Shown one piece after another: positions 3,634 to 35,862 of a DNA stretch of 38,000 nt; the stretch's first letter is position 1, and each line of letters begins with the position of its first letter. Under the pieces are notes generated by a model, which worked only from the letters and a program-made list of their open reading frames with translations, did no database searches and was not told where the DNA came from. The stretch is taken from assembly GCA_964437265.1 (NCBI GenBank), contig CAYTGY010000003.1, positions 1-38,000 of the forward strand, in the 5' to 3' direction. Made by a program: the position numbers and the translations under genes. The DNA comes from an uncultured Spirochaetaceae bacterium (GTDB lineage: Bacteria; Spirochaetota; Spirochaetia; DSM-27196; SLST01).

Positions 3634-4014
3634 CTATGCAACGAATGATGAGAGGAGCTCCTGAATAATCCGCGGGTTATCTCCGCTCTGGATCGAGAGC
3701 GCTCCCAGGGTGTAGATGATCCGCCGCAGCAGGTCCACGCCCGTCAGGCGCGGAAACAGCATACGCGTGACACAGATCTCCCGGACCAGCGCCGGATCCG
3801 TGCCGTCCACCACCAGCTGGATGGCGCTGCGAAGAAAGGAATCCTGGACCTCATCAAGTCCGTCTTCCAGGGCCAACAACCCTTCGCGCCGCCCGCGCTC
3901 TGCGAAGGCCACCATGTGCTCCACGACCTCGGTGAGCGTGGCACGCTCGGCATCGTCGCACTCTGCCCGCTCATACAGCTCCACCGGCAGCAACAGCTCA
4001 ATTCTCCCACTCAT
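3634..4014 (-). CDS. small soluble protein resembling the cytoplasmic (MotA_N-type) domain of MotA/PomA stator proteins
   Basis: The track ORF 3634..4209 is trimmed to ATG 4014 ([14 protein letters not shown]...). The segment [38 protein letters not shown]...[13 protein letters not shown] matches, from memory, the conserved cytoplasmic module of Firmicute/Thermotoga-type MotA proteins. No TM helices are present. Confidence 0.4.
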
Positions 4015-4085
4015 GGCGAATACTCTACCAAGAGACGGCCGAAGGTACAAATGCGCACCCCGGATCGTGGTATACTGGCGGTGGT

Positions 4086-4158
4086 ATGCCCACACGCGTT
4101 TCCGTGGCCAAAGACACCGACGACGTTCCGGCATGGCTGGAGCCGGGAAGACACGCGG
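4086..4158 (+). repeat. left copy of the direct repeat (partner 20117-20210)
   Basis: 4086-4121 equals 20117-20152 (36/36). 4122-4158 versus 20174-20210 gives 34/37. The left copy lacks the 21 nt at 20153-20173. Confidence 0.9.
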
Positions 4159-4187
4159 CGGCCATCCGGTCAGAGGCGGGGCGGTAG
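4086..4187 (+). pseudogene. relic 5' fragment of a Uma2-family endonuclease gene (33 codons, then stop)
   Basis: It translates as [33 protein letters not shown]. The first 36 nt are identical to the start of the intact Uma2 gene at 20117. A 21-nt in-frame gap follows, then 34/37 identities, after which similarity decays. An extended -10 (TGgTATACT, 4068-4076) ends 9 nt upstream of the ATG. Confidence 0.7.
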
Positions 4188-4343
4188 TTCGCCGGGCGGT
4201 GTCCCACAAGAATCGCTATAGGCCTACTCGTTCTTGCTCAAAACGCGGCTCGGGAACAACAGACCCCCGACTCCGGTCCTTGCACGCGATGGCCGCCGGA
4301 TTCACAATGGACAAAGCACGAACATTCTCAGGAGGTTCTCCGC

Positions 4344-6893
4344 ATGGCTTTGGCGTCTCTTCCGACCGACGATTCGTGTCGATTCGTGAGCGCCCGTCCA
4401 ATCTGGCTCACGAGTCGCTCACGGGAGGCAAACGTCCAAGCGGGGTTTCGCGCGTCGGTGACCGCCCATCACGGCCGCTCGTATGCTATTCGCGTGACTG
4501 CGGCGACCGTCTACCGCCTTCTGGTCAACGGTCGTCTCGTGGCGTACGGGCCCGCACGATCACCGCACGGGTTTCTCCGCGTAGACGAAGTCCCCCTGAC
4601 GGAGCATCTCGATGACGGCGAGAATGCAGTCTGTCTCGAGGTCGCCGGGTACAACTGCGGGTGCGTCTACCAGGTCGGTCGCCCTTCGTTCGTACAGGCG
4701 GAAGTGTTCGAAGACGATAGGACAATTGCCGCTACCGGCGTAGGACGGGGGGTTGCGGCGATTCGGCTTTCCATGCGACATCAACGTGTCGTCCGTTTCT
4801 CCTACCAGCGTGCGTTTACCGAGATCTACACCATCAACCGGGAGAAGCCTGCGGCACGATGGAACGATCCTGGCGTCGACGTGGCGCCGTTCCGGAATTC
4901 GACGGAGGTTGTGGATCACGCGAGTCGGCTGTTGCCGCGCGGAACCCCTATGCCGAGGTTCACGCGGATCGACATAGGATCGCAGATCTCGCTCGGGTCG
5001 ATGGCCCCGATTGAACACCCCGCGGGGTTCTCGTATCCGCAGAAGCAGTTCTTCTCTTCTCCCAGTCCCGGCTACAAGACGTTCGCGTCGTTCTCGCTCG
5101 AGGAAATTCCTGAGAACCCATACTACACGCTTCAGGATTTCACCTTTCGCAGCGATTCACGAGGGCGGCTCGGAGCAGATCTCTTTCCTCGCCGGCTGAA
5201 GCGTAACCGATTCGCACTGTACGATCTCGGACGCATCGTCACCGGGTTTATCGGCACACGGGTAATCGTGGGAGAGGATGCGACCATACTCTTGGTGTTC
5301 GATGAGAAACTGACCGGCGAGGCGTTTGCGCACATGCCGCACTGGGCGACAATCAACGTGGTCACGTACCACTTGGGCGCATCCTCCTCACCGTACGATC
5401 TGCTCACATTCGAGCCCTACGGGCTTCGCTACGTTGCGGTGGTGGTGCTCACGGGAGACGTGACCCTCACAGACTTGTTCGTCCGCGAGTATGCATACCC
5501 GTGCACCGATTCGATAGTCTTCAGCTCGTCCGACGCTCGATTGGTGAGCCTTTTCTTCGCCGCACGTGAGAGCTTCCGACAGAACGCGCTCGACGTGCTG
5601 ATGGACAATGCCCACCGTGAACGCGGCGCGTATCTGTTGGAGAGCTTCTTCTCCGCCGCCTCGATCCCATTCCTCTCGCAAGACCCGGCTCCGGAGACCT
5701 GCACGTTGGAAAACTACGCGCTTGTCGATCGCTTTCCCGGACTGGAGAAGGGCCACCTGCCCATGGTCTATCCGTCCGACTTTCGGGCGGCATGTCCCTC
5801 ATTCTCCCTCTGGTACATCCTCGAACTCGGCGAGTACGTAACACGCATACCGAACGCCGACCTCGATCGTTTTCGACCTCTTGTCGAAGCGATCCTCGCC
5901 CGCTTCGAACAATTCCTCAATCGCGAAGGGCTACTCGAAAACGTTGGTCCCGATTTCTGGGAGTGGTCGGCAGCCAACGAGTTCACCAATGGCGTTCACT
6001 TCCCACTCAACATGCTCTACGCGAAAGCACTCGCCGTGTTCGGGCGTCTCTACGAGTTGAACGCCCCACGCGAGCGGGCAGCTGAGATTCGATCCAGGAT
6101 CATCGACAGATCGTTCGACGGTGAGTCCTTCCGCGACAACGCAACGCGCAACCAGGACGGAACGCTTCACGCCACGGGCAACCGCTCGGAGTACTGCCAA
6201 CATCTTGCGTTTCTTCTTGACACGGTCGACGCCGAAGACGTGCGTTTCTTCGAGCTGGCACGTCGTGTTGTCCACGAAATGGGCCCGATGCACGAACGCG
6301 AAATCCCTGAGGTCGCGTCGTACGGGCTACCGGGTGCTGCAAGCGCTCCGGTCTTCGAGGATGTGTCGCCGCACACCACGCGATTGGTTCCCCTTGGTCT
6401 CTCTTACGGCTACCTGTCGCGTCTCCGCTTTCTACTCCGCAGGCGCGAGTACCAAGCGGTGCTCGACGAGTGCATCCACGTGTTCCATCCGATGGCGTGC
6501 TTCGGAGGAACGCTGTGGGAGCACAAGTCGCTGCTCTGCGAGGTGACCGGCCTCCCCGGACTCGGCGCGTGCGGATGCAACCAGGGGTCCGCGTCCTTCG
6601 TCGGCGCGGCGGTGATCCGCGCGGCGGTTGGGCTCCAGCGTGTTGATCTCGCAAAGAGAACCGTGACGCTCGACTTCGCCGACGTCGAAATCCGACACGT
6701 GCGCTACCAGCTCGCCACCCCCCACGGCGACATCTTGATAGAGCGCACGAAGGATCCGGACGGGCCTCACTACGTGCGGTATTGCGTTCCCAACGCGTAC
6801 AAAGTGGAACTCGTGCCGCCATCCGGGCGGTTTCATATCCACGCGTCCTACTGCGAAGACATAGAAGAGGACAGCGAAGGAGGCGCTTCGTGA
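4344..6893 (+). CDS. GH78-like (alpha-L-rhamnosidase family) glycoside hydrolase, cytoplasmic
   Basis: 849-aa ORF with GGAGG at 4331-4335. The N-terminal pattern ARPIWL...NVQAGFRA...VTAATVYRLLVNGRLVAYGPARS...GENAV is typical of the rhamnosidase N-domain. A central MDNAHRERGAYLLE resembles the six-hairpin D-x-P-x-R-E-R-x-G-W block. No signal peptide. Confidence 0.5.
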   Translation: MALASLPTDDSCRFVSARPIWLTSRSREANVQAGFRASVTAHHGRSYAIRVTAATVYRLLVNGRLVAYGPARSPHGFLRVDEVPLTEHLDDGENAVCLEVAGYNCGCVYQVGRPSFVQAEVFEDDRTIAATGVGRGVAAIRLSMRHQRVVRFSYQRAFTEIYTINREKPAARWNDPGVDVAPFRNSTEVVDHASRLLPRGTPMPRFTRIDIGSQISLGSMAPIEHPAGFSYPQKQFFSSPSPGYKTFASFSLEEIPENPYYTLQDFTFRSDSRGRLGADLFPRRLKRNRFALYDLGRIVTGFIGTRVIVGEDATILLVFDEKLTGEAFAHMPHWATINVVTYHLGASSSPYDLLTFEPYGLRYVAVVVLTGDVTLTDLFVREYAYPCTDSIVFSSSDARLVSLFFAARESFRQNALDVLMDNAHRERGAYLLESFFSAASIPFLSQDPAPETCTLENYALVDRFPGLEKGHLPMVYPSDFRAACPSFSLWYILELGEYVTRIPNADLDRFRPLVEAILARFEQFLNREGLLENVGPDFWEWSAANEFTNGVHFPLNMLYAKALAVFGRLYELNAPRERAAEIRSRIIDRSFDGESFRDNATRNQDGTLHATGNRSEYCQHLAFLLDTVDAEDVRFFELARRVVHEMGPMHEREIPEVASYGLPGAASAPVFEDVSPHTTRLVPLGLSYGYLSRLRFLLRRREYQAVLDECIHVFHPMACFGGTLWEHKSLLCEVTGLPGLGACGCNQGSASFVGAAVIRAAVGLQRVDLAKRTVTLDFADVEIRHVRYQLATPHGDILIERTKDPDGPHYVRYCVPNAYKVELVPPSGRFHIHASYCEDIEEDSEGGAS

Positions 6894-8419
6894 ATCATCG
6901 GTCAAGGTCCCCCAACGTCCTGTTCATCGTGACCGATCAACAGCGATTTGACACCATCGGTGCGCTTGGCAACAGCCACATCCACACGCCAAACCTTGAC
7001 CGACTTGTTGCGCGCGGCGCCGTGTGTGAGCACGCCTACTCGCCGTGCCCCGTTTGCGTCCCGGCTCGCTACGCTATACGGACCGGTCGCGACCCGCTTA
7101 CAACGGGGTATTTCCAGAATGAACCCCCAATCCTCGCCGAGGGGTATCCCGCGGTGACCGAGGAGCGATGCGGAGAGTTTCTTGCGCGAGCCATGAGACG
7201 ACGGGGGTACCGCACGTTCGGGATCGGCAAGTTCCACACCATCCCGGTCAAGGAGGATCTGGGCTACGACGTCTACCAACGGTGTGAGGAGATGGACGGC
7301 TACCCAGACTCGTATGCACAGTTTATCTGGGCACACCCCGCGTACCGGCATATCGAGCAGCTCCACGGCGAGCGGACCGAGATGTACTACCAACCACAGA
7401 TGAGCCCGCTGCCGGCAGAGCTCACAGCCGAACGATGGGCAACCGATCGCGCGATAGAGCAGATCACCAAGGTGGACGACCGGCCGTACTTCGGAGTCCT
7501 CTCTTTTGTCGGCCCGCACCCCCCGTTCGCCCCACCTGTACCGTTTAACCGCATGTACGATCCTGATCGGATGAGAGATCCGATCGTCGGCCCTGAATCG
7601 GTGGACCTGATGGATCCACGCGTCGAGTGGAATCGATACTTCGTTTTCGCCGAGGATTTGAGCAACGCTCACATTCGCACGCTGCGCGCGCGTTACTACG
7701 GTGAGATCAGCTACATCGACTCGTGCGTCGGTCGGGTGATAGACACCATCGAACAAAGGTCGGATGCCGACGACACGCTGATCGTGTTCACCTCCGACCA
7801 CGGTGAGTTTCTTGGCGACCATCGAGCGGTGCAGAAGGAGAACTTCTTCGAAGAGTCCGCACATGTGTCAATGCTGGTGAGCCTACCGACGCGTATCAAG
7901 CCGGGGACGCGCATCGCGCAGACGGTGATGCTTACCGACCTCTTCGGCTTGGCCACGTCGGCCGCCTCCAGCCCCGAACTCCGCGACGGGATCGACCTCA
8001 TGGCACTGCTCGAAGGTCGACCGGCTTCAACCCCACGGACACGCTTCGGCTTCTCGAGCGCTCCGGGATCGCTTCACTTCCGAATGATGGCGCTCACCAA
8101 CACGTGGAAATACGTGTTCCACGCCAACGGTGGAGGCGAGCTGCTCTTTGACCCCGTCCATGATCCACACGAGCACCGAAACCTCATCGTCGATCGGCCC
8201 GACATGGCAAAGGCGGCACGAGCAGCCTGTGTTGACCGCCTCCGCAACGCTGCCGGAGCTGCCGCGCTCGACGGCGAGCGGCTGAGGTGCTTCCCAAAGA
8301 CGCGTCTTCCGCAAGAGCGCATCTACCAAATGAACGCGTTCCGCGGCGTCGTCGGGTTCCCTGAACACCCAGATGAGGTCGTATTCGCCGACCCAACTGG
8401 GTGCGACACTCCACAATAG
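6890..8419 (+). CDS. Cys-type sulfatase (formylglycine-dependent, S1 family), no signal peptide
   Basis: Contains NVLFIVTDQQRFD, SPCPVCVPARYAIRTGR (C-x-P-x-R at 7055-7069) and FTSDHGEFLGDH. I place the start at GTG 6890. It is preceded by GAAGGAGG (6876-6883) and overlaps the upstream stop as GTGA. The track ORF start at 6782 lies inside the upstream gene. Confidence 0.85.
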   Translation: MNHRSRSPNVLFIVTDQQRFDTIGALGNSHIHTPNLDRLVARGAVCEHAYSPCPVCVPARYAIRTGRDPLTTGYFQNEPPILAEGYPAVTEERCGEFLARAMRRRGYRTFGIGKFHTIPVKEDLGYDVYQRCEEMDGYPDSYAQFIWAHPAYRHIEQLHGERTEMYYQPQMSPLPAELTAERWATDRAIEQITKVDDRPYFGVLSFVGPHPPFAPPVPFNRMYDPDRMRDPIVGPESVDLMDPRVEWNRYFVFAEDLSNAHIRTLRARYYGEISYIDSCVGRVIDTIEQRSDADDTLIVFTSDHGEFLGDHRAVQKENFFEESAHVSMLVSLPTRIKPGTRIAQTVMLTDLFGLATSAASSPELRDGIDLMALLEGRPASTPRTRFGFSSAPGSLHFRMMALTNTWKYVFHANGGGELLFDPVHDPHEHRNLIVDRPDMAKAARAACVDRLRNAAGAAALDGERLRCFPKTRLPQERIYQMNAFRGVVGFPEHPDEVVFADPTGCDTPQ

Positions 8420-8516
8420 GAGTCGAAAACGCGATCATCTTGGGTCATTGCGCCCTGCCGGTGGCTGGTCCAAGCTGTCATCACACGGGCACGAGGAAGA
8501 GCGGAGGTGATGCGTC

Positions 8517-9497
8517 GTGAAGAGACCGCGCGATCGGTCCACAAGGGAACCCATTCACCCAGCACGGCGTCGACCACGATTGTTCGCCGCCACGGTGCGC
8601 AGACAGTACGATCTCTACCTTCTGGTGTTGCCGGGCATACTCTTTCTCCTGATGTTCAAATACTTCCCTCTGCTGGGAAATGTCATCGCGTTCCAGGATT
8701 TCAGGATCAACATTGGGCGGACCCTCGTCGATAGCATCCTGAAGAGCGAGTGGGTAGGATGGCGGCAGTTCGAGCGCATATTCCGGGATCCGAACGCATG
8801 GAACGCCGTGCGCAACACGTTCATCATCGCGGGATACAAGATTGTCTTCTTGTTCCCCATCCCAATCGTTCTCGCCATCCTGCTCAACGAAATGCGGCTT
8901 TCGTCCGTGCGCCGCGTCGCCCAGACAATCATCTACTTCCCGAACTTCCTGTCGTGGGTTGTTGTGGGAACCATGTTCGCGCAGATGCTCCAGGCGGACG
9001 GGCTGATCAACACGCTGCTCGGGATTCCCTTCGACCAGCGCGTCTCGTATCTCATCGACTACCGCTACTTCCGGCCGATCCTGGTGCTCACCGAGGGATG
9101 GAAGAGTTCAGGCTTCGCAACGATCATCTACTTGGCAGCGATCTCCGGCATCGATCCCGGACAATTCGAGGCGGCGACGGTTGACGGGTGCAATCGATTC
9201 CAGCGAATCCGTCATGTGACGATACCGAACATCGGCGGCACGATAGCGATGGTCTTCGTGATCAGCCTTGGCATACAGGTTGCGTACGGCTCCTTCGAGC
9301 AGGTGCTGATTCTCTCTAATCCCGCCGTCTATGAGACCGGCGACATCCTTCAGACCTTCTCGTACCGGAAGGGGCTCGGATCTATGGAGTTCAGCTTCTC
9401 CACGGCCGCCGGCATGTTGAACGCTACGGCGGGACTTATTCTGATCTTTTTGAGCAACTACTTCTGTAAGAAGGCGTTCGGCCGCTCTATCTGGTAG
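8517..9497 (+). CDS. carbohydrate ABC transporter permease, LplB-type
   Basis: Contains YDLYLLVLPGILFLLMFKYFPLLGNVIAFQDF, multiple TM segments and an EAA-like loop (EAATVDGCNRFQRIRHVTIP). GTG start with GGAGG at 8503-8507. The exact start is uncertain. Confidence 0.8.
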   Translation: MKRPRDRSTREPIHPARRRPRLFAATVRRQYDLYLLVLPGILFLLMFKYFPLLGNVIAFQDFRINIGRTLVDSILKSEWVGWRQFERIFRDPNAWNAVRNTFIIAGYKIVFLFPIPIVLAILLNEMRLSSVRRVAQTIIYFPNFLSWVVVGTMFAQMLQADGLINTLLGIPFDQRVSYLIDYRYFRPILVLTEGWKSSGFATIIYLAAISGIDPGQFEAATVDGCNRFQRIRHVTIPNIGGTIAMVFVISLGIQVAYGSFEQVLILSNPAVYETGDILQTFSYRKGLGSMEFSFSTAAGMLNATAGLILIFLSNYFCKKAFGRSIW

Positions 9498-9508
9498 GCG
9501 AGGATCGT

Positions 9509-10387
9509 ATGCGGAAAAGCAGAAAGACACAGCCATTCGATGTTGTCAACTACGGACTCTTCGCGCTGCTCTGTTCGGTCAGCTTGCTACCGTTCGTGCA
9601 CCTCCTGGCCAAATCGCTCAGTAGCCGCAACAGCGTCATCCGGGGCGAAGTCGCGCTTCTGCCGATCAACCCTCAACTTGAAGCGTACGCGTACGTGATC
9701 GGGAATACGCAGTTCTTGAACTCGCTGCTTGTATCAGTGTTTCTGGCGACCTTCGGGACGTTCATCAGCGTAACGCTGACTGCGATGGTCGCCTACCCAC
9801 TGTCCAAGAGCGGCTTTCGGGGACGGAAGCTCATACTGTACGCATTCGTCTTTGCCTGGCTGTTCGCACCCTCGATCGTGCCGGTCTTCTTCCTAATGCG
9901 CTCGCTGGGACTGTTGAACAATCTACTCTCGCTGATCCTGATTGATGTGATCTGGTGTTTCAACATGCTCATCGTCAAATCCTATTTTGAGGGCATTCCG
10001 GACTCTCTGCCCGAGTCGGCACAGATTGAGGGTGCGTCCAATATCCGCATCCTCTTCTCTATCATCATGCCTGTCGCGAAGCCGGTGATCGCGACGATCA
10101 CCATCTACTCGGCGTTTGGCTACTGGAACATGTACTTCTGGCCCGTGCTGTTCATCTCGCGACCGTCGCTCAAGCCGCTTCAGTTGTACATCTACGAACT
10201 GGTCTTTTCGGCGTCGAACAATCTGAGCGGCAACGTGATGGACGACGCCTCTCGGTTCAAGAGCGTTGTTCCGGACATCATCCGTTCGGCGACGGTCTTC
10301 GTCTCAATGATCCCCGTCATGGCGGTGTACCCATTCGTCCAGAAGCACTTCGTCAAGGGGATCATGCTCGGGTCGGTGAAAGGATAG
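9509..10387 (+). CDS. carbohydrate ABC transporter permease, LplC/YtcP-type
   Basis: 292-aa polytopic ORF with the loop ESAQIEGASNIRILFSIIMPVAKP. It starts 11 nt after the preceding permease gene. Confidence 0.8.
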   Translation: MRKSRKTQPFDVVNYGLFALLCSVSLLPFVHLLAKSLSSRNSVIRGEVALLPINPQLEAYAYVIGNTQFLNSLLVSVFLATFGTFISVTLTAMVAYPLSKSGFRGRKLILYAFVFAWLFAPSIVPVFFLMRSLGLLNNLLSLILIDVIWCFNMLIVKSYFEGIPDSLPESAQIEGASNIRILFSIIMPVAKPVIATITIYSAFGYWNMYFWPVLFISRPSLKPLQLYIYELVFSASNNLSGNVMDDASRFKSVVPDIIRSATVFVSMIPVMAVYPFVQKHFVKGIMLGSVKG

Positions 10388-10505
10388 CGATCTCGGTTTC
10401 GCCGCTCCAGCGGTTCGACCGCGGAGGGCAAGACCAGGACGATACGGCAGACGAAACGGACCGGGCGGTTCGGATCGCGCGCCAAAACCACAGGAGGCAA
10501 AGAGT

Positions 10506-11978
10506 ATGGCAAGAGCAAAGACGATCGCGGTTATCATTGTCGCGCTCGCGGTGGCCGGCACGGTGTTCGCAACCGGTCAGTCGGAGGGACAACAGGTCAG
10601 CCTGCGCATTCTCACGGACATGAACCCAGGTGACGACATGAACACGGACCCCGTGACGCAGCTCACCGAGGAAATCACGGGTTACAACCTCGAGTTCGAG
10701 AAGCTTCCCGACGACCCGGGCCAGAGAGCGCAGAGGCTTAACCTGGTTCTCGCCGCGGGCGAAGAAGTCGATCTCATTCGGCTCTCAAGCATCGGAGTCG
10801 CACAGGAGCTGATTCCGCAGGGGTACTTCACGCCGCTGGACGACCTGCTTGAGGAGTACGGACCAAACATCCTCGAGAACACGAGCGACGAGTGGTTCGA
10901 GCCGGTCACGTGGGACGGGAGCATTCACGCGGTTCCTATCAAGCGAACGTCGGCGGCGAGCATCGTTGGGTCGATCTACCGTAAGGACGTCTTTGAGTCC
11001 CTGGGGATTGCGGTTCCAACCACTCCGGCGGAGTTCCGATCGGCACTTACCGCGGTGCGAGAGGCGACCGACACGGTTCCCTATACGGCGACGGCATCGT
11101 TTCCCATGATTGACACCATCGCGAGCGCGTTCGGGATCTGCCTGAACGGGTGGTACGAGGTCGACGGGGAGCTCGTTCCCCGTGTCAAGATGGACGGATT
11201 CGTCCCCTACCTATCTTACGTCCGCGGACTCATCGAAGACGGGCTGATGGATCGCGAGATTGCGGCGAACACGGATCAGATCACGCAGGCGAAGATGGCA
11301 TCCGAACGCGCCATGGCGTCATTCTGGGCCTGGTGGTGGTGGCCTGCAAACGACGCGATCCGTGACAACGAGGGAGCGGAGCTCGGGTACCTACCTCCGC
11401 TTCGGTCCGAGCAGGGCGAGGGCATGGCCTGGCTGTGGGGAACAACACCCGAGTGGGCAACCGTCGTTCCCAAGGCAACGACGAAGGCAACACACGCCGT
11501 CTCCTTCCTGGACGCGCTCGCTGAAGACGGGAACTTCCAGGATATCTTTCTTGGCGAGCAGGGGGTTCATTACCGGCGCGAAGGAGACACGTACGTCAGC
11601 CTTCCCGCGTTCACTGAAGAGAAGGCCAATTCCTGGGTCATGCTCATGGTGACCAACGACGACTATCGCGCAACGTACCAGGCGATCTCCCAATCGGGAG
11701 AGGACCCGAACCGCGACGTACAGATGACGTACGAAGGGATGAAGAACGCCGCCGACCCCGTTGCGGTCGCCGACCCGACGGTCGATCTCTCTCCGCCGGA
11801 GGAGAACGGGCGATACGCGAACAACCTCGCGGCGATCGAGAACGAGTTCATCCTGGCGGTGCTCTCAGGAGTGCGCTCCGTGGATGAATACGAGCAGTTC
11901 ATTGCTCGGTGGGATGCCGAGGGAGGCGCGGAACTGACCGAGGCGTGGAATCGGGTGTACGCTGTGTCGCAGCGGTAA
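10506..11978 (+). CDS. extracellular solute-binding protein, large LplA-type (oligosaccharide)
   Basis: 490 aa with AGGAGG at 10492-10497. The signal peptide MARAKTIAVIIVALAVAGTVFATGQSEG has no lipobox Cys. Size and composition are typical of LplA-like SBPs. Confidence 0.75.
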   Translation: MARAKTIAVIIVALAVAGTVFATGQSEGQQVSLRILTDMNPGDDMNTDPVTQLTEEITGYNLEFEKLPDDPGQRAQRLNLVLAAGEEVDLIRLSSIGVAQELIPQGYFTPLDDLLEEYGPNILENTSDEWFEPVTWDGSIHAVPIKRTSAASIVGSIYRKDVFESLGIAVPTTPAEFRSALTAVREATDTVPYTATASFPMIDTIASAFGICLNGWYEVDGELVPRVKMDGFVPYLSYVRGLIEDGLMDREIAANTDQITQAKMASERAMASFWAWWWWPANDAIRDNEGAELGYLPPLRSEQGEGMAWLWGTTPEWATVVPKATTKATHAVSFLDALAEDGNFQDIFLGEQGVHYRREGDTYVSLPAFTEEKANSWVMLMVTNDDYRATYQAISQSGEDPNRDVQMTYEGMKNAADPVAVADPTVDLSPPEENGRYANNLAAIENEFILAVLSGVRSVDEYEQFIARWDAEGGAELTEAWNRVYAVSQR

Positions 11979-11991
11979 GATGCGAGAGCCT

Positions 11992-12042
11992 GCGCGTGGC
12001 GTGGACCGCCACGCGCGCCACGCGCGGAGTACCGCGCGTGGC
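11992..12042. terminator. tandem GC-rich hairpins between convergent operons (bidirectional terminator candidate)
   Basis: Hairpin 1: GCGCGTGGCG (11992-12001) pairs with CGCCACGCGC (12007-12016). Hairpin 2: GCCACGCGCGG (12017-12027) pairs with CCGCGCGTGGC (12032-12042). There are no U-tracts. Confidence 0.5.
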
Positions 12043-12050
12043 ATCATTCA

Positions 12051-13733: not shown

Positions 13734-14806
13734 GTCGGTAGTACCCCCATTTCACGGAAGAAACGCTCCGACTCACTTAGGTAGGAGCGATAGCTCGCAA
13801 GCGACACCTCAGGAGGTGTCTGGTGATCCACTGCGGGCAAGAACCTGCCGCGCCGGAACAGTGACGCAAGTGAAGCAAATTCGTCGGCGATCGCTTGGTG
13901 ACCGCACGCGATCACGCGTTTGTCGAACCCGCCCATGAACGCGGTCTGCGGATGCTCACTGCGCAGACAATGTAGATCCATTCCGGTTTGCCGCTCCATC
14001 GGATTGATACAGTGATAGCCAACACCGGAAAACCGACCGACAAGATCGGTGACGTTGCCGTCGCTGTCGAGCGCGATGACGCACCGTGCCTGCGACAGCT
14101 CCGGCACCAATAGACGGTGATAGGGCGCGACAAACTCGTCAAACATCTCCGGAGAGATCATCGGACCGTTCTTGTAGGCGAGGTCCTCGGAGACGCACAC
14201 CACCGCCGGCACACCCATGCCGTAGAGTGTTCTGACCGCGCGTATGTTGAACTCAAGCAGACGTCGATTGATCTCATGCATCAGCGCCGGACGGTCGTAG
14301 AAGGAGACCAGGTGTTCGGTGATTCCGAGCAACTCGCGAGGGTGCCAGAAGAACCCGTGAATCGGCACCCAGAGAATTCCGTCCAGGGATGCTGATCGTT
14401 CAAGCGCGCGTCGGTACTCATCGAGTCGCCGGTCAAGTTTCTCGGGTGCGTAGAGATCAGAGCACGTGCGGTTGAGGTCCGCCGCCGTCCTGACCCGTTC
14501 TCGCGCCCCAGCGCGATCGACGTCGGGAGCGACTTCGAAGAAGGTCAGCGGGGTCAGCCCGAACAGCGTGTGAAGCTCCTCCTGCGTCTCCAGTCCAGCC
14601 GGCAGGCCTTCACTTCGCCACCGGCGCAACGTGTCCGGGTGGTAGGGCATGATCTCAAGGCGTGGGAGGCGCTCGACCGGTGCACCGCGGACAAGGTGGT
14701 TGTAGAGACTCTCGGCTAGTGAAGAAGCACCGGGTGCTACGCCTGCCCGCAGTTCAGGTCGGTCGGCTGGTGAGGGCTCGCGACTATTCGTCTCTGAGGC
14801 ACGCAT
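13730..14806 (-). CDS. uroporphyrinogen-decarboxylase (URO-D)/MtaA-like family protein of unknown role
   Basis: The C-terminal two thirds (VPAVVCVSEDLAYKNGPMISPEMFDEFVAPYHRLLV...DSDGNVTDLV...INPMERQTGMD...GGFDKRV) look URO-D-like. ATG 14806 (track start 14809 is TTG) overlaps the GH130 3' end by 23 nt. Confidence 0.55.
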   Translation of the reverse strand: MRASETNSREPSPADRPELRAGVAPGASSLAESLYNHLVRGAPVERLPRLEIMPYHPDTLRRWRSEGLPAGLETQEELHTLFGLTPLTFFEVAPDVDRAGARERVRTAADLNRTCSDLYAPEKLDRRLDEYRRALERSASLDGILWVPIHGFFWHPRELLGITEHLVSFYDRPALMHEINRRLLEFNIRAVRTLYGMGVPAVVCVSEDLAYKNGPMISPEMFDEFVAPYHRLLVPELSQARCVIALDSDGNVTDLVGRFSGVGYHCINPMERQTGMDLHCLRSEHPQTAFMGGFDKRVIACGHQAIADEFASLASLFRRGRFLPAVDHQTPPEVSLASYRSYLSESERFFREMGVLPT

Positions 14807-15707
14807 CAACGAGACCTTTCAAGGGGGCGGTCGCAAGTCCGACGTTGGTGTCCGCAGCACCGTAGTAGACGCGCACCGTTCCGTCGTCATCAAGAAGCGC
14901 GTTGCACGTGAACACGACGTTTGCGACGCGGCCCCGCATCTCGTAGTCGTGTTCCGGCCAAAGGACAAAGTCGCGTGTGTAGCCGATGACTCGTGCCGGG
15001 TCTTCGAGATCGAGAAGCATCGCCTTCAGCCGGTAGACGAACCCGTTACACGTCGTGGAGACGGTGTGGTATATCTCGAGCCATCCCTTGTCGGTACGAA
15101 TTGGAACCGCGCCGGCACCCATCTTGTGACCATCGAAGAACGGCCGGCCTCGGTAGGTGAGCGGTTCTGATCTGCCCCAGAAAACGAGGTCCGGTGACCG
15201 GCTCACCCACATCGACGATGGATCGAGTTCGTTTCCGAACGGCCGATCGAACCGCGTGTACAGATCCTCGAACTTCTCCGGAAAGAGACACCCGTTTCGG
15301 TTGCCGAGCTCGCTTGCGGTGCACACGCGCTCAAATGACGCGAAGTCTGTTGTGCGCAGGATTCCAATGCGCACGTTGTTCTGCGAGAGATCACTCGCAT
15401 AGAGAATGACGAATTCGTTGTCGATGCGCGTAATGCGGGGATCGTACGTGTTCGTCTCAGGATGCGACGGGTCTACCTGCGGCATATGGACCGGTGCGGG
15501 ATCCGGAGTGAAATGCACCCCGTCATCGCTGCGCGCGATCCACAGCCGATGCACGTCGTCGAGCGTGGTGACGTCCATCATCATAAGGTACGTACCGTTC
15601 CACCGGATCGCGCCTGGGTTGAACGTGTAGAGCACCTGTTTGGGCATCATGGCGGGCGTCATGATCGGATTGCCCGCGTATTTGGTGAAGAGCCGATTTT
15701 CGGTCAT
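14784..15707 (-). CDS. GH130 family beta-mannoside phosphorylase/hydrolase
   Basis: Contains GNPIMTP...YTFNPGAIRWNGTYLMMMDV...DPRITRIDNEFVILY...MGAGAVPIRTDKGWLEIYH...VYYGAADTNVGLA, characteristic five-bladed-propeller GH130 blocks. ATG 15707 lies 2 nt after the GRE stop. No signal peptide. Confidence 0.8.
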   Translation of the reverse strand: MTENRLFTKYAGNPIMTPAMMPKQVLYTFNPGAIRWNGTYLMMMDVTTLDDVHRLWIARSDDGVHFTPDPAPVHMPQVDPSHPETNTYDPRITRIDNEFVILYASDLSQNNVRIGILRTTDFASFERVCTASELGNRNGCLFPEKFEDLYTRFDRPFGNELDPSSMWVSRSPDLVFWGRSEPLTYRGRPFFDGHKMGAGAVPIRTDKGWLEIYHTVSTTCNGFVYRLKAMLLDLEDPARVIGYTRDFVLWPEHDYEMRGRVANVVFTCNALLDDDGTVRVYYGAADTNVGLATAPLKGLVDACLRDE

Positions 15708-15709
15708 CG

Positions 15710-18052
15710 CTACGCCTCCATGGCCGTGCGCCGGAGAATATCCGACTGACTCGCTTCGTCAAGATTTGTGAAGTAGTCAACGTATCCACCGACGCGAACC
15801 ATCAAATCCCGGTAATTCTCAGGGTGAGCAACCGCGTCCTCCAGCGTCGCTCGGCTGACACAGTTCATCTGCAAGTGCGAGCCTCCACGACGGAAGAACG
15901 TGTTCACGAGCGCCTGAGTCTTCTGCCGCGCATCCTCAGTATTCAAGAACGATTCATGGAACCGGATCTGGCCGATTGTCCCTCCCGCCCAGTGCTTCCC
16001 ATCGAGTTTCGCCATCGAGTTGAGAACCGCCGTCGGACCGTTTCGCTCCGTTCCGGGGTACGCAGCATTCCCCGCGGCGAGCGCATGCTTCGCGAAGCGA
16101 CCGTCCGGCGTTGCCGGCGTGAGTAGCCCCTCGTACACGTGCGAGATTCGTGGTATCAGCTCAAAAACCCACTTGCCGTCGGTGTAGACACTCCTGCGAC
16201 TCGGTGGGTAGGGTTCCATCGCCTCGCGGCTCACCTCCTCAATGAGAGGAATCATCGCGTCTACGTAATCGTCGTCATTTCCGAACTTGGGCGCGTTCCA
16301 GAGTTTCTGCCGGATCTCCGGGTGTTCGGCAAAATCCGCCGCAAGCGCACGACCGAGTTCTTCCTGGGACACTGATTGGTCGTCAAAGACGCATTTCTTG
16401 ATGGCGGCGAGCGAGTTTACGACGGGAATGAAGTCGCTATGGCCCAAAGCCGGCTGGAAAAAATCGACGGCCTCCATGAGGCTTCCGCCACGCTCGATGC
16501 ACCCGCTCATCAGCGCCGATGCAAACGGCAGCGGGCGCAGGTCGACGTGCAGTCGATCCATAATCCCTATCCCGGCAGCGACGTACGGCGCGAAGTGCCG
16601 CACGGTTTCTCTGTACGCCGCAAAGAATTGCTCCCATGACTCGTACTCGCCCAGACGCGGCACAGCGGGCCCCATCTGCTTCCCGTTGTCCGGCATCACG
16701 CCGCCGTTTAGCACCAGTTCCAGCACGCGAACGAGGAAGATCGGTCGCGCGATCCCACCTCCGAGCAGGCGGCCTCCGATGACCGTCTCGTTGCAGCCGG
16801 CCTGACAATAGTCGACGGCAGCGGATCGTGGAATGCCGACACGGACGAGCCCACCAACGTAGTCCTCGTCGTTGATAATCGCGATCGATGCATCCCCCGC
16901 ATACGTGCTGTCCAGGATAGTTCGGATCATCCGCTGATCAATGGCAGGGTGCCACCGGACCAGAAGCGAAGGCTGCACCATCTGGGTGGCGCGATCGGCT
17001 GCGACACACAGGTACGAGACCTCGTTCGTCATGTCGTTACCGTCTATGTCCGCACCGCAAATCGTGATCGTCTGCGTCAGCGATATCCTCGTTCCGCCAA
17101 GCGTTATCTCCATGCACTTCATGTAGAGCGACTCCACAAGTTCCTGAGCAAACCCTTCGTGCAGAACGCCCGCGTCTCGATCTGCGCGGTAGCAGCCAAC
17201 CGTGTACTGGTCGAACCTGCCGAGCGAGATTGCAAACCCATTCTGTTCTAGGTGCATCACAAGGTGCATGAACCACGTCGCCTGGCACGCTTGCCAGAAG
17301 GTGCCGGCCGGATGAGCGGGAACGGTGCGGCAGTTCTCCGCTATGGCGTGAAGCTCCGCGCGTCGTCGCGGATCCTTCTCCGCCGCTGCAAGCTGGTCCG
17401 CGAGCTCCGCGTATCTGTGTGCGAAGCGGATAACCGCCTGCAACACAATGACTACCGCGCGGTTGAAATGATAGCCCCTCGCGTCACGCGCGTAGCACCA
17501 CTGCATCCGCTCGCGCGCTCGCTCAATGTAGGAGAGAAGCCCATGATTCACAACTTTGTCATACTCGACGACAATATGGCCTTGTCCCTCGTCGCGGCCG
17601 TAGGGGTTTCCGCATATCTCACGCGTGTCGCGCATCTCCTGGATCTCGGCAGGCATCACGGTATCAGCGATCTCGTGCATGCAACGGCCTCGCCAGAACT
17701 CGCGGATCCGCCTGAACTCACGCCGCTCCTCATCCGTCGCGAAGTCCGTCTCGTCGAGCTCGCGATCGAAGTCGAAGTGGACGTACCGGATCACGACGTC
17801 CTGAAACGTGTACTCCGGGTACATCTCGTAGTCGCCGAGCCGGGCAGCGTAGTTTCCTACGATCAACTCGCCCTCACGGATGAACACCGTCTTCTCGTCG
17901 AGCACTCGCGCTGCCGCACGGGCCTGCTGTACGACCGGAACCTCTGCAGCGTTGTCTGCGTACGCGTTGGTGACCAGTCGTGCTCGCTCCAAGTTCCATG
18001 CACTCGGGGCGGCGAAGAACTCATCCTTCAATCGTCGAACACGTTCGCTCAT
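15710..18052 (-). CDS. glycyl radical enzyme (PFL2/eliminase-like), substrate unknown
   Basis: Start trimmed to ATG 18052 (MSERVRRLKDE...), with AGGAAGGAG 6 nt upstream. It has a PFL2-type N-terminus (ERARLVTNAY...REGELIVGN), the Cys loop DYCQAGCNETVIGG, KFGNDDDYVD, ATPDGR, GGSHLQMNCV and the glycyl motif MVRVGGYVDYF near the C-terminus. Confidence 0.9.
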   Translation of the reverse strand: MSERVRRLKDEFFAAPSAWNLERARLVTNAYADNAAEVPVVQQARAAARVLDEKTVFIREGELIVGNYAARLGDYEMYPEYTFQDVVIRYVHFDFDRELDETDFATDEERREFRRIREFWRGRCMHEIADTVMPAEIQEMRDTREICGNPYGRDEGQGHIVVEYDKVVNHGLLSYIERARERMQWCYARDARGYHFNRAVVIVLQAVIRFAHRYAELADQLAAAEKDPRRRAELHAIAENCRTVPAHPAGTFWQACQATWFMHLVMHLEQNGFAISLGRFDQYTVGCYRADRDAGVLHEGFAQELVESLYMKCMEITLGGTRISLTQTITICGADIDGNDMTNEVSYLCVAADRATQMVQPSLLVRWHPAIDQRMIRTILDSTYAGDASIAIINDEDYVGGLVRVGIPRSAAVDYCQAGCNETVIGGRLLGGGIARPIFLVRVLELVLNGGVMPDNGKQMGPAVPRLGEYESWEQFFAAYRETVRHFAPYVAAGIGIMDRLHVDLRPLPFASALMSGCIERGGSLMEAVDFFQPALGHSDFIPVVNSLAAIKKCVFDDQSVSQEELGRALAADFAEHPEIRQKLWNAPKFGNDDDYVDAMIPLIEEVSREAMEPYPPSRRSVYTDGKWVFELIPRISHVYEGLLTPATPDGRFAKHALAAGNAAYPGTERNGPTAVLNSMAKLDGKHWAGGTIGQIRFHESFLNTEDARQKTQALVNTFFRRGGSHLQMNCVSRATLEDAVAHPENYRDLMVRVGGYVDYFTNLDEASQSDILRRTAMEA

Positions 18053-18084
18053 GCTCTGCTCCTTCCTACCTGTGTGCGAGGCGA

Positions 18085-19014
18085 TCACATGACCGTCGTC
18101 GTCAAACTGCTCGATTCGAGGCGAAGGACAAGGCGTTGTATCTCTTCCGCCGTGGGGGGCTCGACGTCTTCCATCGCGTACTCCAACCCAAGTCCCTCGT
18201 ACTTCGACGCGCCCATCCGGTGGTAGGGCATGATGTCCACCGGGCCGGTGAAATCGGCGTCCTTCGCAAACGTGATGAGCGCGTCGATGTTCTCCCTTGT
18301 ATCCGTGAGTCCCGGAATGAGGACAAGGCGCGCCCGAACATCCGGCACGAGGCGCAGTGCCGAACGGAAGCTCGCAAGGATGCCCTCATTCCTAACACCC
18401 GTGTAGCGCTCGTGCAGCGTCGGATCCATGAGCTTGAGGTCAAAAAGAATCCCGTCGAATCGGCGTACAACCGCGTCGAAGACGGGCGCCTCAGCGAATC
18501 CCGATGTGTCTAGGTACACGGTGACGCCTTCGTTGTGGCATGCATCCGCGATGGCAATAGCCGCTTCCGGCTGCCGCAGCGGCTCTCCGCCGGAGACCGT
18601 GACGCCTCCAAGCGAGGCCTCGTAGTAGTCGCGGTCACGCACCACCTGACGCATGATCTCCGACACCGAAACCACGCCGCCGTGAATTGCCAGAGCCTCC
18701 GCCATGCACACGCCGACGCACGCGCCACACGCGGTACACTTTGCATGGTCAACCGAGTGTACCCCGTGGACAATTTGCTGTGCCCCGTGCGGGCAGCGGT
18801 CGACGCATGCCCCACACGAGGTACACAAGCGCCGGCTGAAAAGCAGGACCGGCCCAGATTCGTGCGACTCGGGGTTATGACACCAGCGGCACCGCAACGG
18901 GCACCCCTTGAGGAACACTGTGGTACGAATCCCGGGTCCGTCGTGCAGACAGAAACGCTGGATGCGGAGGAGGTGTACTGACGTTGAGTCCTGGTCAACA
19001 CGCGTATCGTTCAT
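18085..19014 (-). CDS. glycyl-radical enzyme activating protein (radical SAM, PflA family with ferredoxin-like insert)
   Basis: Contains IQRFCLHDGPGIRTTVFLKGCPLRCRWCHNPE (CxxxCxxC at 18880-18903) and two CxxCxxCxxxC motifs (CTSCGACVDRCP, CTACGACVGVCM). The C-terminus has PYHRMGASKYEGLG. Start is ambiguous: ATG 19014, ATG 19035 or TTG 19056, none with a strong SD. It ends 32 nt before the GRE start. Confidence 0.88.
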   Translation of the reverse strand: MNDTRVDQDSTSVHLLRIQRFCLHDGPGIRTTVFLKGCPLRCRWCHNPESHESGPVLLFSRRLCTSCGACVDRCPHGAQQIVHGVHSVDHAKCTACGACVGVCMAEALAIHGGVVSVSEIMRQVVRDRDYYEASLGGVTVSGGEPLRQPEAAIAIADACHNEGVTVYLDTSGFAEAPVFDAVVRRFDGILFDLKLMDPTLHERYTGVRNEGILASFRSALRLVPDVRARLVLIPGLTDTRENIDALITFAKDADFTGPVDIMPYHRMGASKYEGLGLEYAMEDVEPPTAEEIQRLVLRLESSSLTTTVM

Positions 19015-19162
19015 CTTGCCGGTCCGCAGTGTCATACGAAGGAGATGAACGGACAATGTCTTCGGGCGTTGGCGTTTCCGACCCCAATCGTGGGCGAGGA
19101 ATCCAACGACCCAAACTGCCGTGGATGACTGGACGCAGCAAGTATGGTAGCATCAAAGCTAT

Positions 19163-20050
19163 ATGGCCGGAAGCCGAAGACCGACGCCGACGTGCGCGCG
19201 GACGGTCGCCCTGGATGAACTGGTAGACGTGCTTGAGCTACCGACCACAAGGATCAAGGTGTCCGGCGACGTGGAGCCGTACTGGAAACGGTGGTTCGAG
19301 TACTCATGCACAAATCGGTTGATCGCGTACCACGAGATCAGTTACGTCCTCAAGGGAAGAATCCACGGAGAGATCGAAGGCGATCACCTTGACCTCGCAG
19401 CCGGTGATATGTTCTGGATGGCCCCCCGTGCGCGCCACTCGATGACGTGGTGCGAGCAGCTCATCTACTACACCTTTCGGTTCTCCGTCCACGACCGATG
19501 CGAGGAGGTTTCCCTGAACCGGCCCTTCGTGCACTCCTCGTCGGCGGGAAGTCTCGAACCGCTCTTCAGCAACCTCGCGTCGCTTCTGAAGAACGATCCA
19601 GCAAATCCCTACCATGAGAAGAGAATCAAGGCCTACCTGCTCCTGATTGCAGCGCATATCGCTATGCCGGCTGGTTCGCCCCCGGCTGACACGGGAAACC
19701 GCGAGCTGACCGATGCCGAACGAAGCGCACTCTTCGAGTACTGCTCGCGATCCGGTTTCGCCGAAGTGGACTCATCGGTGCTCGCCGACTACCTTGGTCT
19801 CTCGCGCGACTACTTCTCTCGAGTGTTCAAACAGACGTTCGGGAAGAGCACGCGGAGTTGGCTTTTCGAACAGAAGATGCATTTCGCCGCGCGTCAACTG
19901 GTGGACACGGACCTACCGATTGAGGAGATCGCCGGCCACGCCGGGTATCTGGACGTCTATCTGTTTGCCAGGCAGTTTAAGCGTGTGCTTGGACTCACGC
20001 CCAAGCGGTACCGCCAACGGAACCGTTGGGGAATCCACGACGATACGTGA
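19163..20050 (+). CDS. AraC-family transcriptional regulator (cupin sensor plus 2x HTH)
   Basis: N-terminal cupin-like region (YVLKGRIHGEIEGDHLDLAAGDMFWM). The C-terminus LADYLGLSRDYFSRVFKQTFGKSTRSWLFEQKMHFAARQLVDTDLPIEEIAGHAGYLDVYLFARQFKRVLGLTPKRYR is AraC-type. It is divergent from the GRE operon. The start is uncertain (ATG 19163 or GTG 19229). Confidence 0.85.
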   Translation: MAGSRRPTPTCARTVALDELVDVLELPTTRIKVSGDVEPYWKRWFEYSCTNRLIAYHEISYVLKGRIHGEIEGDHLDLAAGDMFWMAPRARHSMTWCEQLIYYTFRFSVHDRCEEVSLNRPFVHSSSAGSLEPLFSNLASLLKNDPANPYHEKRIKAYLLLIAAHIAMPAGSPPADTGNRELTDAERSALFEYCSRSGFAEVDSSVLADYLGLSRDYFSRVFKQTFGKSTRSWLFEQKMHFAARQLVDTDLPIEEIAGHAGYLDVYLFARQFKRVLGLTPKRYRQRNRWGIHDDT

Positions 20051-20058
20051 AGGGCATC

Positions 20059-20075
20059 CTGAGGACGCTCCTCAG
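20059..20075 (+). terminator. short hairpin after the AraC gene
   Basis: CTGAGGA-cgc-TCCTCAG: a 7-bp stem with a 3-nt loop and no U-tract. Confidence 0.25.
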
Positions 20076-20097
20076 TAACGAATCGGGAGCCGCTTTG

Positions 20098-20106
20098 TGC
20101 TATAAT
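20098..20106 (+). promoter_or_regulatory. extended -10 promoter (TGcTATAAT) of the Uma2 gene
   Basis: TGCTATAAT ends 10 nt before ATG 20117 and there is no Shine-Dalgarno in between. This implies a very short leader or a leaderless mRNA. Confidence 0.5.
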
Positions 20107-20116
20107 CACCAGCGAG

Positions 20117-20210
20117 ATGCCCACACGCGTTTCCGTGGCCAAAGACACCGACTACGAGCTGCTCACCGCCGACGACTTTCTGGCATGGCTGGAGCCGGGA
20201 AAACACGCGG
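20117..20210 (+). repeat. right copy of the direct repeat (partner 4086-4158)
   Basis: See the left copy. This copy is the 5' end of the intact Uma2 gene and contains the extra 21 nt at 20153-20173. Confidence 0.9.
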
Positions 20211-20764
20211 ACCTGATCGATGGGGAGGTGGAGATGCACTCGCCGGTCTCACTCAAACATGCCGAGCTGCTCAACTTCGTCGATGCTATCTTGAGGCAGT
20301 ACATTGACCGACACGATCTGGGCACGCTCTTCCGCGAGGTGGTGGCGGTTCGTCTGAGCTCGCGAAACGTGTTCATGCCGGACCTTGCCTTCTACCGCGC
20401 CGGCAGAGAGGCTGACCTCCGTGATACCTATGCGGCCGGCGCTCCGGATTTGGTGGTTGAGGTGTTGAGCCCGCGCACGGCGGAGCGCGACGTGGGACCC
20501 AAGTTCGCTGAGTACGAACAGCACGGCGTCATTGAGTACTGGGTGCTTGATCCGGAGACGCTCGCGCACCGGTTCTACCGGCGACAGGGGGAGATCCTTA
20601 CCGAGTACGCGGATGAAACCGAGAATACGGCTGGAACCGGCGGCGCGGCGGCGACCATTCATTCAGAGACGGTGCCCGGATTCTTTGTCCGCAGGGAGTG
20701 GCTCACACCGGCCGCCGTGCCAAAGATTGACGCAGCGCTGACGGAGATCGAAGCCGCCCGGTGA
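20117..20764 (+). CDS. Uma2-family (DUF820) endonuclease
   Basis: 215 aa. Contains DGEVEMHSPVSLKHAEL...PDLAFY...APDLVVEVLSPRTAERDVGPKFAEYEQHGVIEYWVLDPE, the PD-(D/E)xK-like Uma2 signature blocks. Confidence 0.85.
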   Translation: MPTRVSVAKDTDYELLTADDFLAWLEPGKHADLIDGEVEMHSPVSLKHAELLNFVDAILRQYIDRHDLGTLFREVVAVRLSSRNVFMPDLAFYRAGREADLRDTYAAGAPDLVVEVLSPRTAERDVGPKFAEYEQHGVIEYWVLDPETLAHRFYRRQGEILTEYADETENTAGTGGAAATIHSETVPGFFVRREWLTPAAVPKIDAALTEIEAAR

Positions 20765-20772
20765 CCCGCACT

Positions 20773-21731: not shown

Positions 21732-21758
21732 CGTAGCGGACCGAAGGACGCGCCACCG

Positions 21759-35852: not shown

Positions 35853-35862
35853 CGTACCCTCC

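Follow-up and report, generated by a model that had tools for sequence, protein, structure and literature searches.

A strain-variable 16-kb island between direct repeats of an Uma2 gene start in an uncultured Spirochaetaceae bacterium

Population genomics of marine bacteria has revealed flexible genomic islands, which conspecific strains exchange by homologous recombination in the conserved flanks. A different arrangement is found in Escherichia coli, where the 13-kb MccH47 island is bounded by extensive imperfect direct repeats and has no recombinase of its own; its excision and integration have been demonstrated experimentally, are RecA-independent, take place within short identical repeat segments and yield hybrid repeats (PMC3191183, PMC5426353). 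Here we describe a locus of comparable layout in an uncultured Spirochaetaceae bacterium (assembly GCA_964437265.1). The stretch analyzed, hereafter the window, comprises the first 38,000 nt of contig CAYTGY010000003.1 and contains a block of carbohydrate-utilization genes enclosed by two direct repeats derived from a gene of the Uma2 family. In our judgment, the enclosed segment, 4159-20116, is probably a horizontally acquired, strain-variable island that the host recombined into its chromosome, using homology between the 5' end of its own Uma2 gene and a segment of the incoming DNA. The elements that define the locus are the following (window coordinates).

3634-4014, minus strand: native left-flank gene, 126 aa, no Pfam family; anchor of the empty-site comparison
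4015-4085, plus strand: native Uma2 upstream region, with the extended -10-like sequence GTGGTATACT at 4067-4076
4086-4158, plus strand: left direct repeat, a truncated Uma2 5' remnant (gene nt 1-94 minus 21 nt)
4159-20116, strand not applicable: inserted DNA, 15,958 nt, delimited by blastn of contig L006, alignment and composition
20051-20116, plus strand: island right end, a hairpin and then a non-native Uma2-type promoter with GTGCTATAAT at 20097-20106
20117-20210, plus strand: right direct repeat, nt 1-94 of the intact Uma2 gene
20117-20764, plus strand: intact resident Uma2 gene, the insertion target (PF05685, E 8.6e-30; PD-(D/E)xK nuclease family)

A reading of the sequence alone had proposed two Uma2-derived repeats in the same orientation, 16,031 bp apart, and alignment of both copies confirmed this spacing. 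The repeat was detected as two direct segment pairs, 4086-4125 with 20117-20156 (40 nt, 98% identity, start-to-start distance 16,031 nt) and 4117-4158 with 20169-20210 (42 nt, 93%, 16,052 nt), which together form one repeat with a left copy of 73 nt and a right copy of 94 nt. The copies are distinguished by 3 substitutions and a 21-nt in-frame gap flanked by CCGAC microrepeats. All 4 differences are situated 3' of nt 36, and the first 36 nt from the ATG are the longest exact run common to both copies; the runner-up repeats in the window do not exceed 47 nt, at 60-80% identity. The left remnant sits in a 33-codon open reading frame (ORF; 4086-4187), with 24 Uma2 codons kept and the homology ending after nt 73. 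It is a decaying or foreign-type 5' remnant and not one of the Uma2 paralogues between which recombination had been suggested as an alternative.

The inserted DNA and one repeat copy add up to a 16,031-nt unit. Integration had been placed at or next to a Uma2 gene; the point of insertion is in fact inside the coding sequence, after nt 94, and not beside the gene. Uma2 is made whole to the right of the island by the second copy of these 94 nt and, with an intact gene on that side, the island appears to interrupt nothing functionally. No further Uma2-derived segment was retrieved from the window by tblastn, and the 185 nt after the left remnant and the 66 nt before the right copy were without similarity to other sequences of the window, to the loci or to the proteins. 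We therefore rejected a concealed Uma2 3' remnant or second repeat at the island ends.

The same site is present without the block in two relatives. The first is a 3914-nt contig (L006) from JGI 3300012009, recorded in two samples and near-identical to the window, which was found as a 98%-identical fragment in a Uma2 search and spans only 103 nt to the left of this gene. The second is a 583-nt ENA contig (L005) with 1.2x coverage and about 82% nucleotide identity to the window. The blastn matches of L006 were as follows.

L006 1-197: window 3983-4158, about 98% apart from the 21-nt gap
L006 104-429: window 20117-20442, 99.4%
L006 424-580: window 20641-20797, 100%
L006 1324-2509: window 36815-38000, 94%

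Thus, L006 joins 3983-4085 straight to 20117-20797, and the inserted DNA is absent at this position. In a four-way alignment, L006 1-103 corresponded to the left upstream region of the window (3983-4085, 1 mismatch), and the L006 Uma2 gene matched the right copy, with 2 mismatches over 483 nt and the 21 nt present. In L005, an orthologue of the 3634-4014 gene is followed by an intergenic stretch homologous to 4015-4085 (a similarity reached in 0 of 2000 shuffles) and then by an uninterrupted Uma2 start, which contains the 21 nt absent from the left copy and runs 31 nt beyond the left-copy breakpoint, matching the right copy of the window. In both contigs, the 5' end of the 3634-4014 gene neighbors an uninterrupted Uma2, the adjacency that the sequence-only reading had asked to be checked in relatives without the block, and 4159-20116 is an indel delimited by the repeat. 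The anchor gene itself has flank-like codon usage, and its product resembles the cytoplasmic part of MotA and FliG_C-like proteins; its closest homologue, 84% identical, is the one on L005.

Other candidates for comparison fell away. A contig carrying a 45% homologue of the 3634-4014 product (L004) is not syntenic, and the 71-72% Uma2 homologues on L087-L089 were rejected as positional orthologues for the same reason. A degenerate Uma2-start pattern, which could have caught occupied, empty and circular junctions alike, gave 0 matches in the metagenome collection, which does not include the sample of L006. The best named matches of Uma2 are Spirochaetota metagenome-assembled genomes (MAGs; 64-72%), and the best GTDB match of the TrpB2-like protein of L006 is 67% identical (Bacillota and Poribacteria MAGs).

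The block contains 11 genes, all of which were included in the Pfam scans.

4344-6893, plus strand: GH78-like six-hairpin glycosidase-like protein, 849 aa, first gene of the plus-strand operon
6890-8419, plus strand: Cys-type sulfatase (PF00884, E 2e-41; CVPAR motif)
8517-9497, plus strand: ABC permease 1 (PF00528)
9509-10387, plus strand: ABC permease 2 (PF00528)
10506-11978, plus strand: family-1 solute-binding protein (PF01547); the ABC sugar importer spans 8517-11978
12051-13733, minus strand: GH39 (Pfam)
13730-14809, minus strand: URO-D-like protein (Pfam)
14784-15707, minus strand: GH130 (Pfam)
15710-18052, minus strand: glycyl radical enzyme (GRE; PF02901, 493 bits, and PF01228, 94 bits)
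18085-19056, minus strand: radical-SAM activase (PF04055 with Fer4), adjoining the GRE gene
19163-20050, plus strand: AraC-family regulator (PF12833/PF00165 with a cupin domain), last gene of the island

The gene content listed from the sequence alone was recovered by these scans for all but the first gene: the GH78-like protein matched no Pfam family and was recognized only by its similarity to a PDB entry, rhamnosidase B (2okx, E 1.9e-12, residues 293-617). The start codon of the sulfatase, which lacks a signal peptide, probably overlaps the stop codon of the preceding gene. The plus-strand operon (GH78-like protein, sulfatase and ABC importer) converges with a minus-strand operon transcribed from 19056 to 12051 in the order activase, GRE, GH130, URO-D-like, GH39, and the AraC gene is divergent from the latter. 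The GRE has both the PFL-like and the Gly_radical domains, with the radical-SAM activating enzyme encoded next to it. Taken together, the annotations predict that the island carries a complete carbohydrate-utilization module.

The block stands apart from its surroundings in codon choice. An impression by eye that the enclosed genes favor ACG, TCG, GTC and CGA and the flanks ACC and CTG was borne out by computation: inside versus outside the block, the fractions were.51 vs.36 for Thr ACG,.32 vs.51 for Thr ACC,.40 vs.29 for Val GTC,.28 vs.37 for Leu CTG,.35 vs.25 for Ser TCG,.18 vs.12 for Arg CGA,.21 vs.37 for Phe TTT and.25 vs.13 for Gln CAA. The pooled synonymous-codon chi2 of the 11 block genes against the rest was 151 on 41 degrees of freedom, a value reached by none of 2000 random 11-gene sets (mean 45, standard deviation 11, maximum 107), and an exhaustive scan of contiguous gene blocks had its global maximum at exactly the genes from the GH78-like protein to AraC. 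By leave-one-out likelihood, 11/11 block genes were block-like and 18 of the 19 flank genes flank-like. The two flanks were indistinguishable from each other (chi2 34, reached by 661 of 1000 permutations), whereas the block differed from each of them (chi2 101 and 122; 0/1000 permutations). The dinucleotide delta* (x1000), which does not depend on gene calls, was 76 between the block and the right flank as against 27-33 between the halves of either, and the 4-kb tetranucleotide profile reversed its sign near 3-4 kb and again near 19-20 kb.

The compositional break predicted at about 4.2 and about 20.1 kb is thus present in codon, dinucleotide and tetranucleotide usage but not in overall GC content or in GC content at third codon positions (GC3), both of which are equal in the block and the flanks (GC3 0.68-0.79 in both). 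Islands from donors of equal GC content can be detected through synonymous-codon choice, which is a lesson for genome-scan methods. Scored by codon usage, the block lay at -2.7 log-likelihood per 100 codons (about 0.027 nats per codon) from the host flanks and at -3.7 to -24 from contigs that bear a related GRE gene. None of the sampled GRE-bearing contigs matched the block compositionally, and they were rejected as donors; because the difference from the flanks is modest, the donor was probably not a very distant organism.

The block carries no gene of the kinds that usually move islands. The Pfam scans found no recombinase, integrase or transposase domain, and the intergenic gaps are all 185 nt or shorter; no tRNA or tmRNA gene was found in the 38 kb, so the earlier statement that integrase, transposase and tRNA are missing holds. 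No Rfam family matched in the window, and there was no inverted seed of 9 nt or more between the block ends that could represent terminal inverted repeats.

Part of the cargo recurs elsewhere. The order activase-GRE-GH130-URO-D-GH39 (window 12051-19056) was found in 6 otherwise unrelated genomic contexts (L001, L003, L096, L097, L099 and L100), giving at least seven contexts with the window. The cassette carries one to three URO-D-like genes across these contexts, and that of L097 is without GH130 and URO-D. Identities to the window proteins are 71-78% for GRE, 72-75% for GH130 and 48-59% for the other three, and 5 of the 6 contigs, for which it was measured, have a GC content of 46-64%. The neighborhoods include TonB-receptor, sulfatase-rich and PVC-like contexts, with sulfatases, a rhamnosidase, GH2 or GH43 and MFS or TonB transport as frequent neighbors. 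As judged from this distribution, the core cassette demonstrably moves between genomes. In L100 (5279-8777), only 1-4 kb separate the cassette from a phage-type integrase (PF00589, with DUF6538) and a fragment of an rve_3 transposase, and the cassette is therefore associated with classical mobility genes in that context. Since the cassette loci lack counterparts of the GH78-like, sulfatase, ABC and AraC genes, the island would be a composite, pre-assembled in a donor of similar base composition.

The best PDB relatives of the GRE (1r8w, 5i2a, 8yjo and 8id7) are B12-independent glycerol/diol dehydratases and PflD/YbiW, which places the enzyme, by sequence comparison, in the dehydratase/eliminase clade. 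It resembles the members of this clade in its full-length PFL-like and Gly_radical domains and adjacent radical-SAM activase. Unlike the characterized enzymes, to which its similarity is remote (about 32-33% identity by tblastn to plasmid-borne glycerol-dehydratase-type GREs), it is embedded with GH130, URO-D-like, GH39, sulfatase and rhamnosidase-like proteins. The plasmid search with GRE yielded nothing above 33% identity, and the metagenome scan returned 6 loci only, all short. The URO-D-like protein had no PDB relative, and full-text literature searches found no paper on the GRE/GH130/GH39 combination. The cassette probably encodes an uncharacterized radical step in the anaerobic breakdown of a sulfated or deoxy-sugar glycan. 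With its patchy distribution, its location on an island and no characterized member, it is a good target for enzymology and the most promising lead from this locus.

The two Uma2 starts have different upstream sequences. In the native region, GTGGTATACT lies 9 nt ahead of the ATG, a predicted promoter of the leaderless type. At the right end of the island, a small hairpin (CTGAGGA..TCCTCAG) precedes GTGCTATAAT, which lies 10 nt ahead of the ATG of the right copy; the 35 nt before this copy are unlike the native upstream region but similar to the L005 Uma2 upstream region (2/2000 shuffles). The pattern GTG[G/C]TATA[C/A]T, 6-10 nt before the ATG, is the architecture common to the Uma2 orthologues of L005 and L087-L089, and its placement would imply a leaderless transcript. 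A scanner for consensus promoters and terminators detected nothing at either junction.

Against an expectation of 0.03, the window contains 3 copies of the motif GTGSTATAMT, at 4067-4076, at 20097-20106 and within 36828-36845. The sites lie 9-20 nt before start codons, those of the two Uma2 copies and of a VapB-like gene, and each is at the boundary of a strain-variable segment. An 18-mer, GTGGTATACTTGAACCAG, located upstream of the VapB-like gene (window 36828-36845; L006 1337-1354), also precedes Uma2, without a mismatch, in two Spirochaetota MAG contigs (L087 412-429; L088 2350-2367), and we regard it as a putative promoter-like element common to unrelated genes and genomes.

The Uma2 product of the window scores 103.9 bits against its Pfam family (cut-off 27), retains the PD..(D/E)xK core (APDLVVEVLSPRT) and matches the PADLOC candidate defense family PDC-S03 (E 3.6e-24). 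The L006 gene has an in-frame 198-nt deletion (L006 424-429 vs window 20443-20640) that removes this core. Uma2 is thus probably inactive in the empty-site strain L006 and, as predicted from its sequence, intact in the island-bearing window. Because Uma2 matches PDC-S03 and VapBC-type modules follow, the site has the look of a defense/toxin-antitoxin-type hotspot, which we take as a suggestion only. A literature search on Uma2 as an integration target returned nothing specific.

These observations can be combined into a route of entry. The incoming DNA would have carried the 5' unit of a homologous Uma2 gene, that is, a leaderless-type promoter, the first codons and a truncated, diverged remainder, and the host recombination machinery would have joined this unit to the resident Uma2 by a crossover in the initial stretch of 36 identical nucleotides. 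We invoke host enzymes because the island encodes no recombination enzyme of its own. Campbell-type integration of a circular intermediate would serve as well as a double crossover with a donor in which this arrangement already existed. The left junction would then consist of the native promoter and nt 1-36, continuing through the foreign-type remnant into the island. At the right junction, the island would be followed by the foreign-type promoter, which would lead through nt 1-36 into the resident Uma2. The location of all differences 3' of nt 36, the diverged remnant and the non-native promoter are what one reciprocal exchange within nt 1-36 would be expected to leave. Recombination in the opposite direction, between the direct repeats, would release the island and restore an empty site of the L006 type. 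As a consequence of the insertion, the native Uma2 promoter may now point into the operon headed by the GH78-like gene, and Uma2 may depend on the imported promoter or on read-through from the AraC gene. Horizontal acquisition, already proposed from the sequence, gains support from the empty sites and the compositional break, and we favor gain over loss because two relatives at different distances are empty, only the block is deviant and the core cassette is mobile.

Several points weigh against this account. A perfect identity of 36 nt is near the lower limit for RecA-type recombination. The clustering of the left-copy differences 3' of nt 36 is, taken alone, not significant (about 0.15, n=4), and decay of a duplicated target after insertion could give the same picture. 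Both junctions are known from the assembled contig alone, and the contigs with the empty site are both short (583 nt at 1.2x for L005; 103 nt to the left of Uma2 for L006). No donor was found: the closest GRE relative shares 78% identity, the island as a whole was not retrieved a second time, and none of the fetched loci has a counterpart of the GH78-like, sulfatase, ABC or AraC genes. Finally, the codon usage of the block is nearer to the host flanks than to any GRE-bearing contig, and the block shows no shift in GC or GC3, so that the foreign signal, though real, is modest.

We weighed four other explanations. The block might be ancestral at the site and have been lost independently from L006 and L005 through repeat recombination or slippage. 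Precise deletions classically arise between direct repeats, and a crossover in nt 1-36 would yield the very sequence of L006, with the native promoter before the right-copy Uma2. Further deletions are found close by in L006, one of 198 nt within Uma2 and one of 16 kb on its right. The left remnant, moreover, differs from L006 at 3 of 73 positions and the neighboring native DNA at 3 of 586 (Fisher p=0.02), an extra divergence that fits longer residence. However, two independent precise losses would be needed, in an about 98% identical strain and in an about 82% identical relative, and neither the deviant codon, dinucleotide and tetranucleotide usage of only these 11 genes nor the non-native Uma2-type promoter at the right end would be accounted for. 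We regard ancestral presence as unlikely; even if it were true, the block would have entered earlier by the same route. Equally doubtful is an illegitimate or homology-facilitated illegitimate insertion, or break repair, in which the 94 nt were duplicated in situ and the left copy then decayed; the incoming DNA would have required no homology to Uma2. The copies are 96-98% identical where aligned, a 21-nt gap between CCGAC microrepeats is typical of slippage, and the weak clustering of the differences speaks for it too. Yet the duplication would have to begin exactly at the ATG, a Uma2-family promoter before the right copy would be unexpected in arbitrary foreign DNA, and the remnant is more diverged than the neighboring native DNA of the same two strains. 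Both of these alternatives share the main conclusion, namely, that the island is delimited by the repeats.

An assembly chimera, with a 16-kb foreign molecule or excised circle threaded through the shared 36 nt, would agree with the composition shifting exactly at the repeats and with the GRE and other proteins of the window occurring on no other database contig. Against it, an exact repeat of 36 nt is far below normal read lengths and final assembly k-mers, the other molecule would need the Uma2 5' unit joined to both its ends, a 16-kb circle without a replication gene is implausible as a plasmid, and the block is closer in codon usage to the host than to anything else sampled; we consider a chimera highly improbable. 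It is scarcely credible that there was no horizontal transfer, the codon shift reflecting expression level or functional class and the repeats an unrelated local duplication. The identical GC and GC3 and the small size of the codon divergence would be in line with such a view, but genes of the same functional classes (ABC sugar importers, glycosidases and regulators) occur in the flanks, which are uniformly flank-like, the signal spans both strands and all 11 genes, and the empty sites directly show that the block is an indel.

If host-mediated acquisition through Uma2 is correct, a short 5' gene segment with its promoter can act as a landing pad. A more specific role, in which Uma2, a candidate single-gene defense nuclease, forms with its leaderless-type promoter a dedicated docking point for recombinase-less cargo cassettes, seems to us very unlikely. 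Three structural differences between near-identical strains do touch this 650-nt gene: the island, the 198-nt deletion and a swap on the right side. Breaks induced by the Uma2 nuclease would, in such a scheme, be repaired from homologous Uma2 units on foreign DNA, and promotion of capture by Uma2 or its promoter-proximal segment would, if true, represent a new mechanism of cassette acquisition.

The swap concerns the region to the right of Uma2. Window 20798-36814, about 16 kb with native codon usage, is absent from L006. It holds 14 sugar-metabolism genes, among others those for an aldo-keto reductase (AKR), two Gfo/Idh/MocA proteins, an ABC importer and a GntR/LacI-type regulator, as well as GH65 and a PEP-hydrolase-like/UPF0261 pair. 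In its place, L006 has 743 nt (581-1323) with a DUF6364-like antitoxin candidate and a PIN gene; no more than about the first 25 nt of the AKR gene remain there, and the swap begins 33 nt after the Uma2 stop codon. From this comparison, the difference looks like a replacement in L006 rather than a simple deletion. Within the segment, the AKR gene (20773-21731) contains a single frameshift near 20900-20910, from the frame of 20773 to that of 20775, with the motif ...TFLDTAHVY continuing in the new frame, and is either a pseudogene or affected by a sequencing error. The second Gfo/Idh/MocA gene (23798-24526, 242 aa) appears to have lost about 100 residues internally, the Pfam matches to its C-domain jumping from position 52 to 172. 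The genes beyond the segment are these.

36856-37104, plus strand: ribbon-helix-helix antitoxin (VapB-like), 82 aa
37101-37508, plus strand: PIN toxin, VapBC-type partner, 135 aa
37566-37838, plus strand: TrpR/YerC-like gene, downstream of the VapBC-type pair
37842 onward, plus strand: start of a TrpB2-like gene, after the TrpR/YerC-like gene

A 263-aa minus-strand ORF in this region (36863-37654) was dismissed as spurious, its GC3 (0.58) being lower than its GC content at second codon positions (0.62).

Compared with known systems, the block has the features of a genomic island, that is, an empty site in relatives, deviant composition (except for GC and GC3) and flanking direct repeats. It is not a transposon by its structure, lacking a transposase and inverted ends and having a duplication of 94 nt. 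Classical integrase-dependent islands and prophages, bounded by attL and attR and usually located at tRNA 3' ends, likewise have end repeats of which one rebuilds the target gene, as well as atypical composition, presence or absence among strains and accessory metabolic cargo. In contrast to these, there is here no self-encoded tyrosine or serine recombinase, no excisionase and no tRNA; insertion took place near the start of a protein gene, at nt 94 of its coding sequence, and the repeat is long (73/94 nt) and imperfect. The likeness to flexible genomic islands lies in the different cassettes found at the same chromosomal position in different strains (the island and 16 kb of sugar genes in the window; neither of them, but a PIN module, in L006) and in the lack of mobility genes. 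The cassette differs from those islands in being bracketed by its own duplicated target segment and in its deviant composition, and an original acquisition from outside the species is therefore indicated.

By analogy, the MccH47 island would be the closest described counterpart. Both are small cargo islands (13 kb there, 16 kb here) with long imperfect direct repeats, no recombinase and empty sites in related strains, and for both recombination is placed within short identical segments of the repeats, here by inference. The mobility of the MccH47 island was shown by experiment, whereas the present island is known from its sequence; its cargo is catabolic instead of a microcin system, and its repeat is the 5' end of a protein gene together with a promoter, the gene being restored. 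Genomic islands without a recombinase are thus a known kind, of which the one described here is a further, fairly ordinary example. Its value is that of a natural case in which an operon-scale catabolic module entered a genome without any mobility gene, with both junctions and the empty site visible in the sequence.

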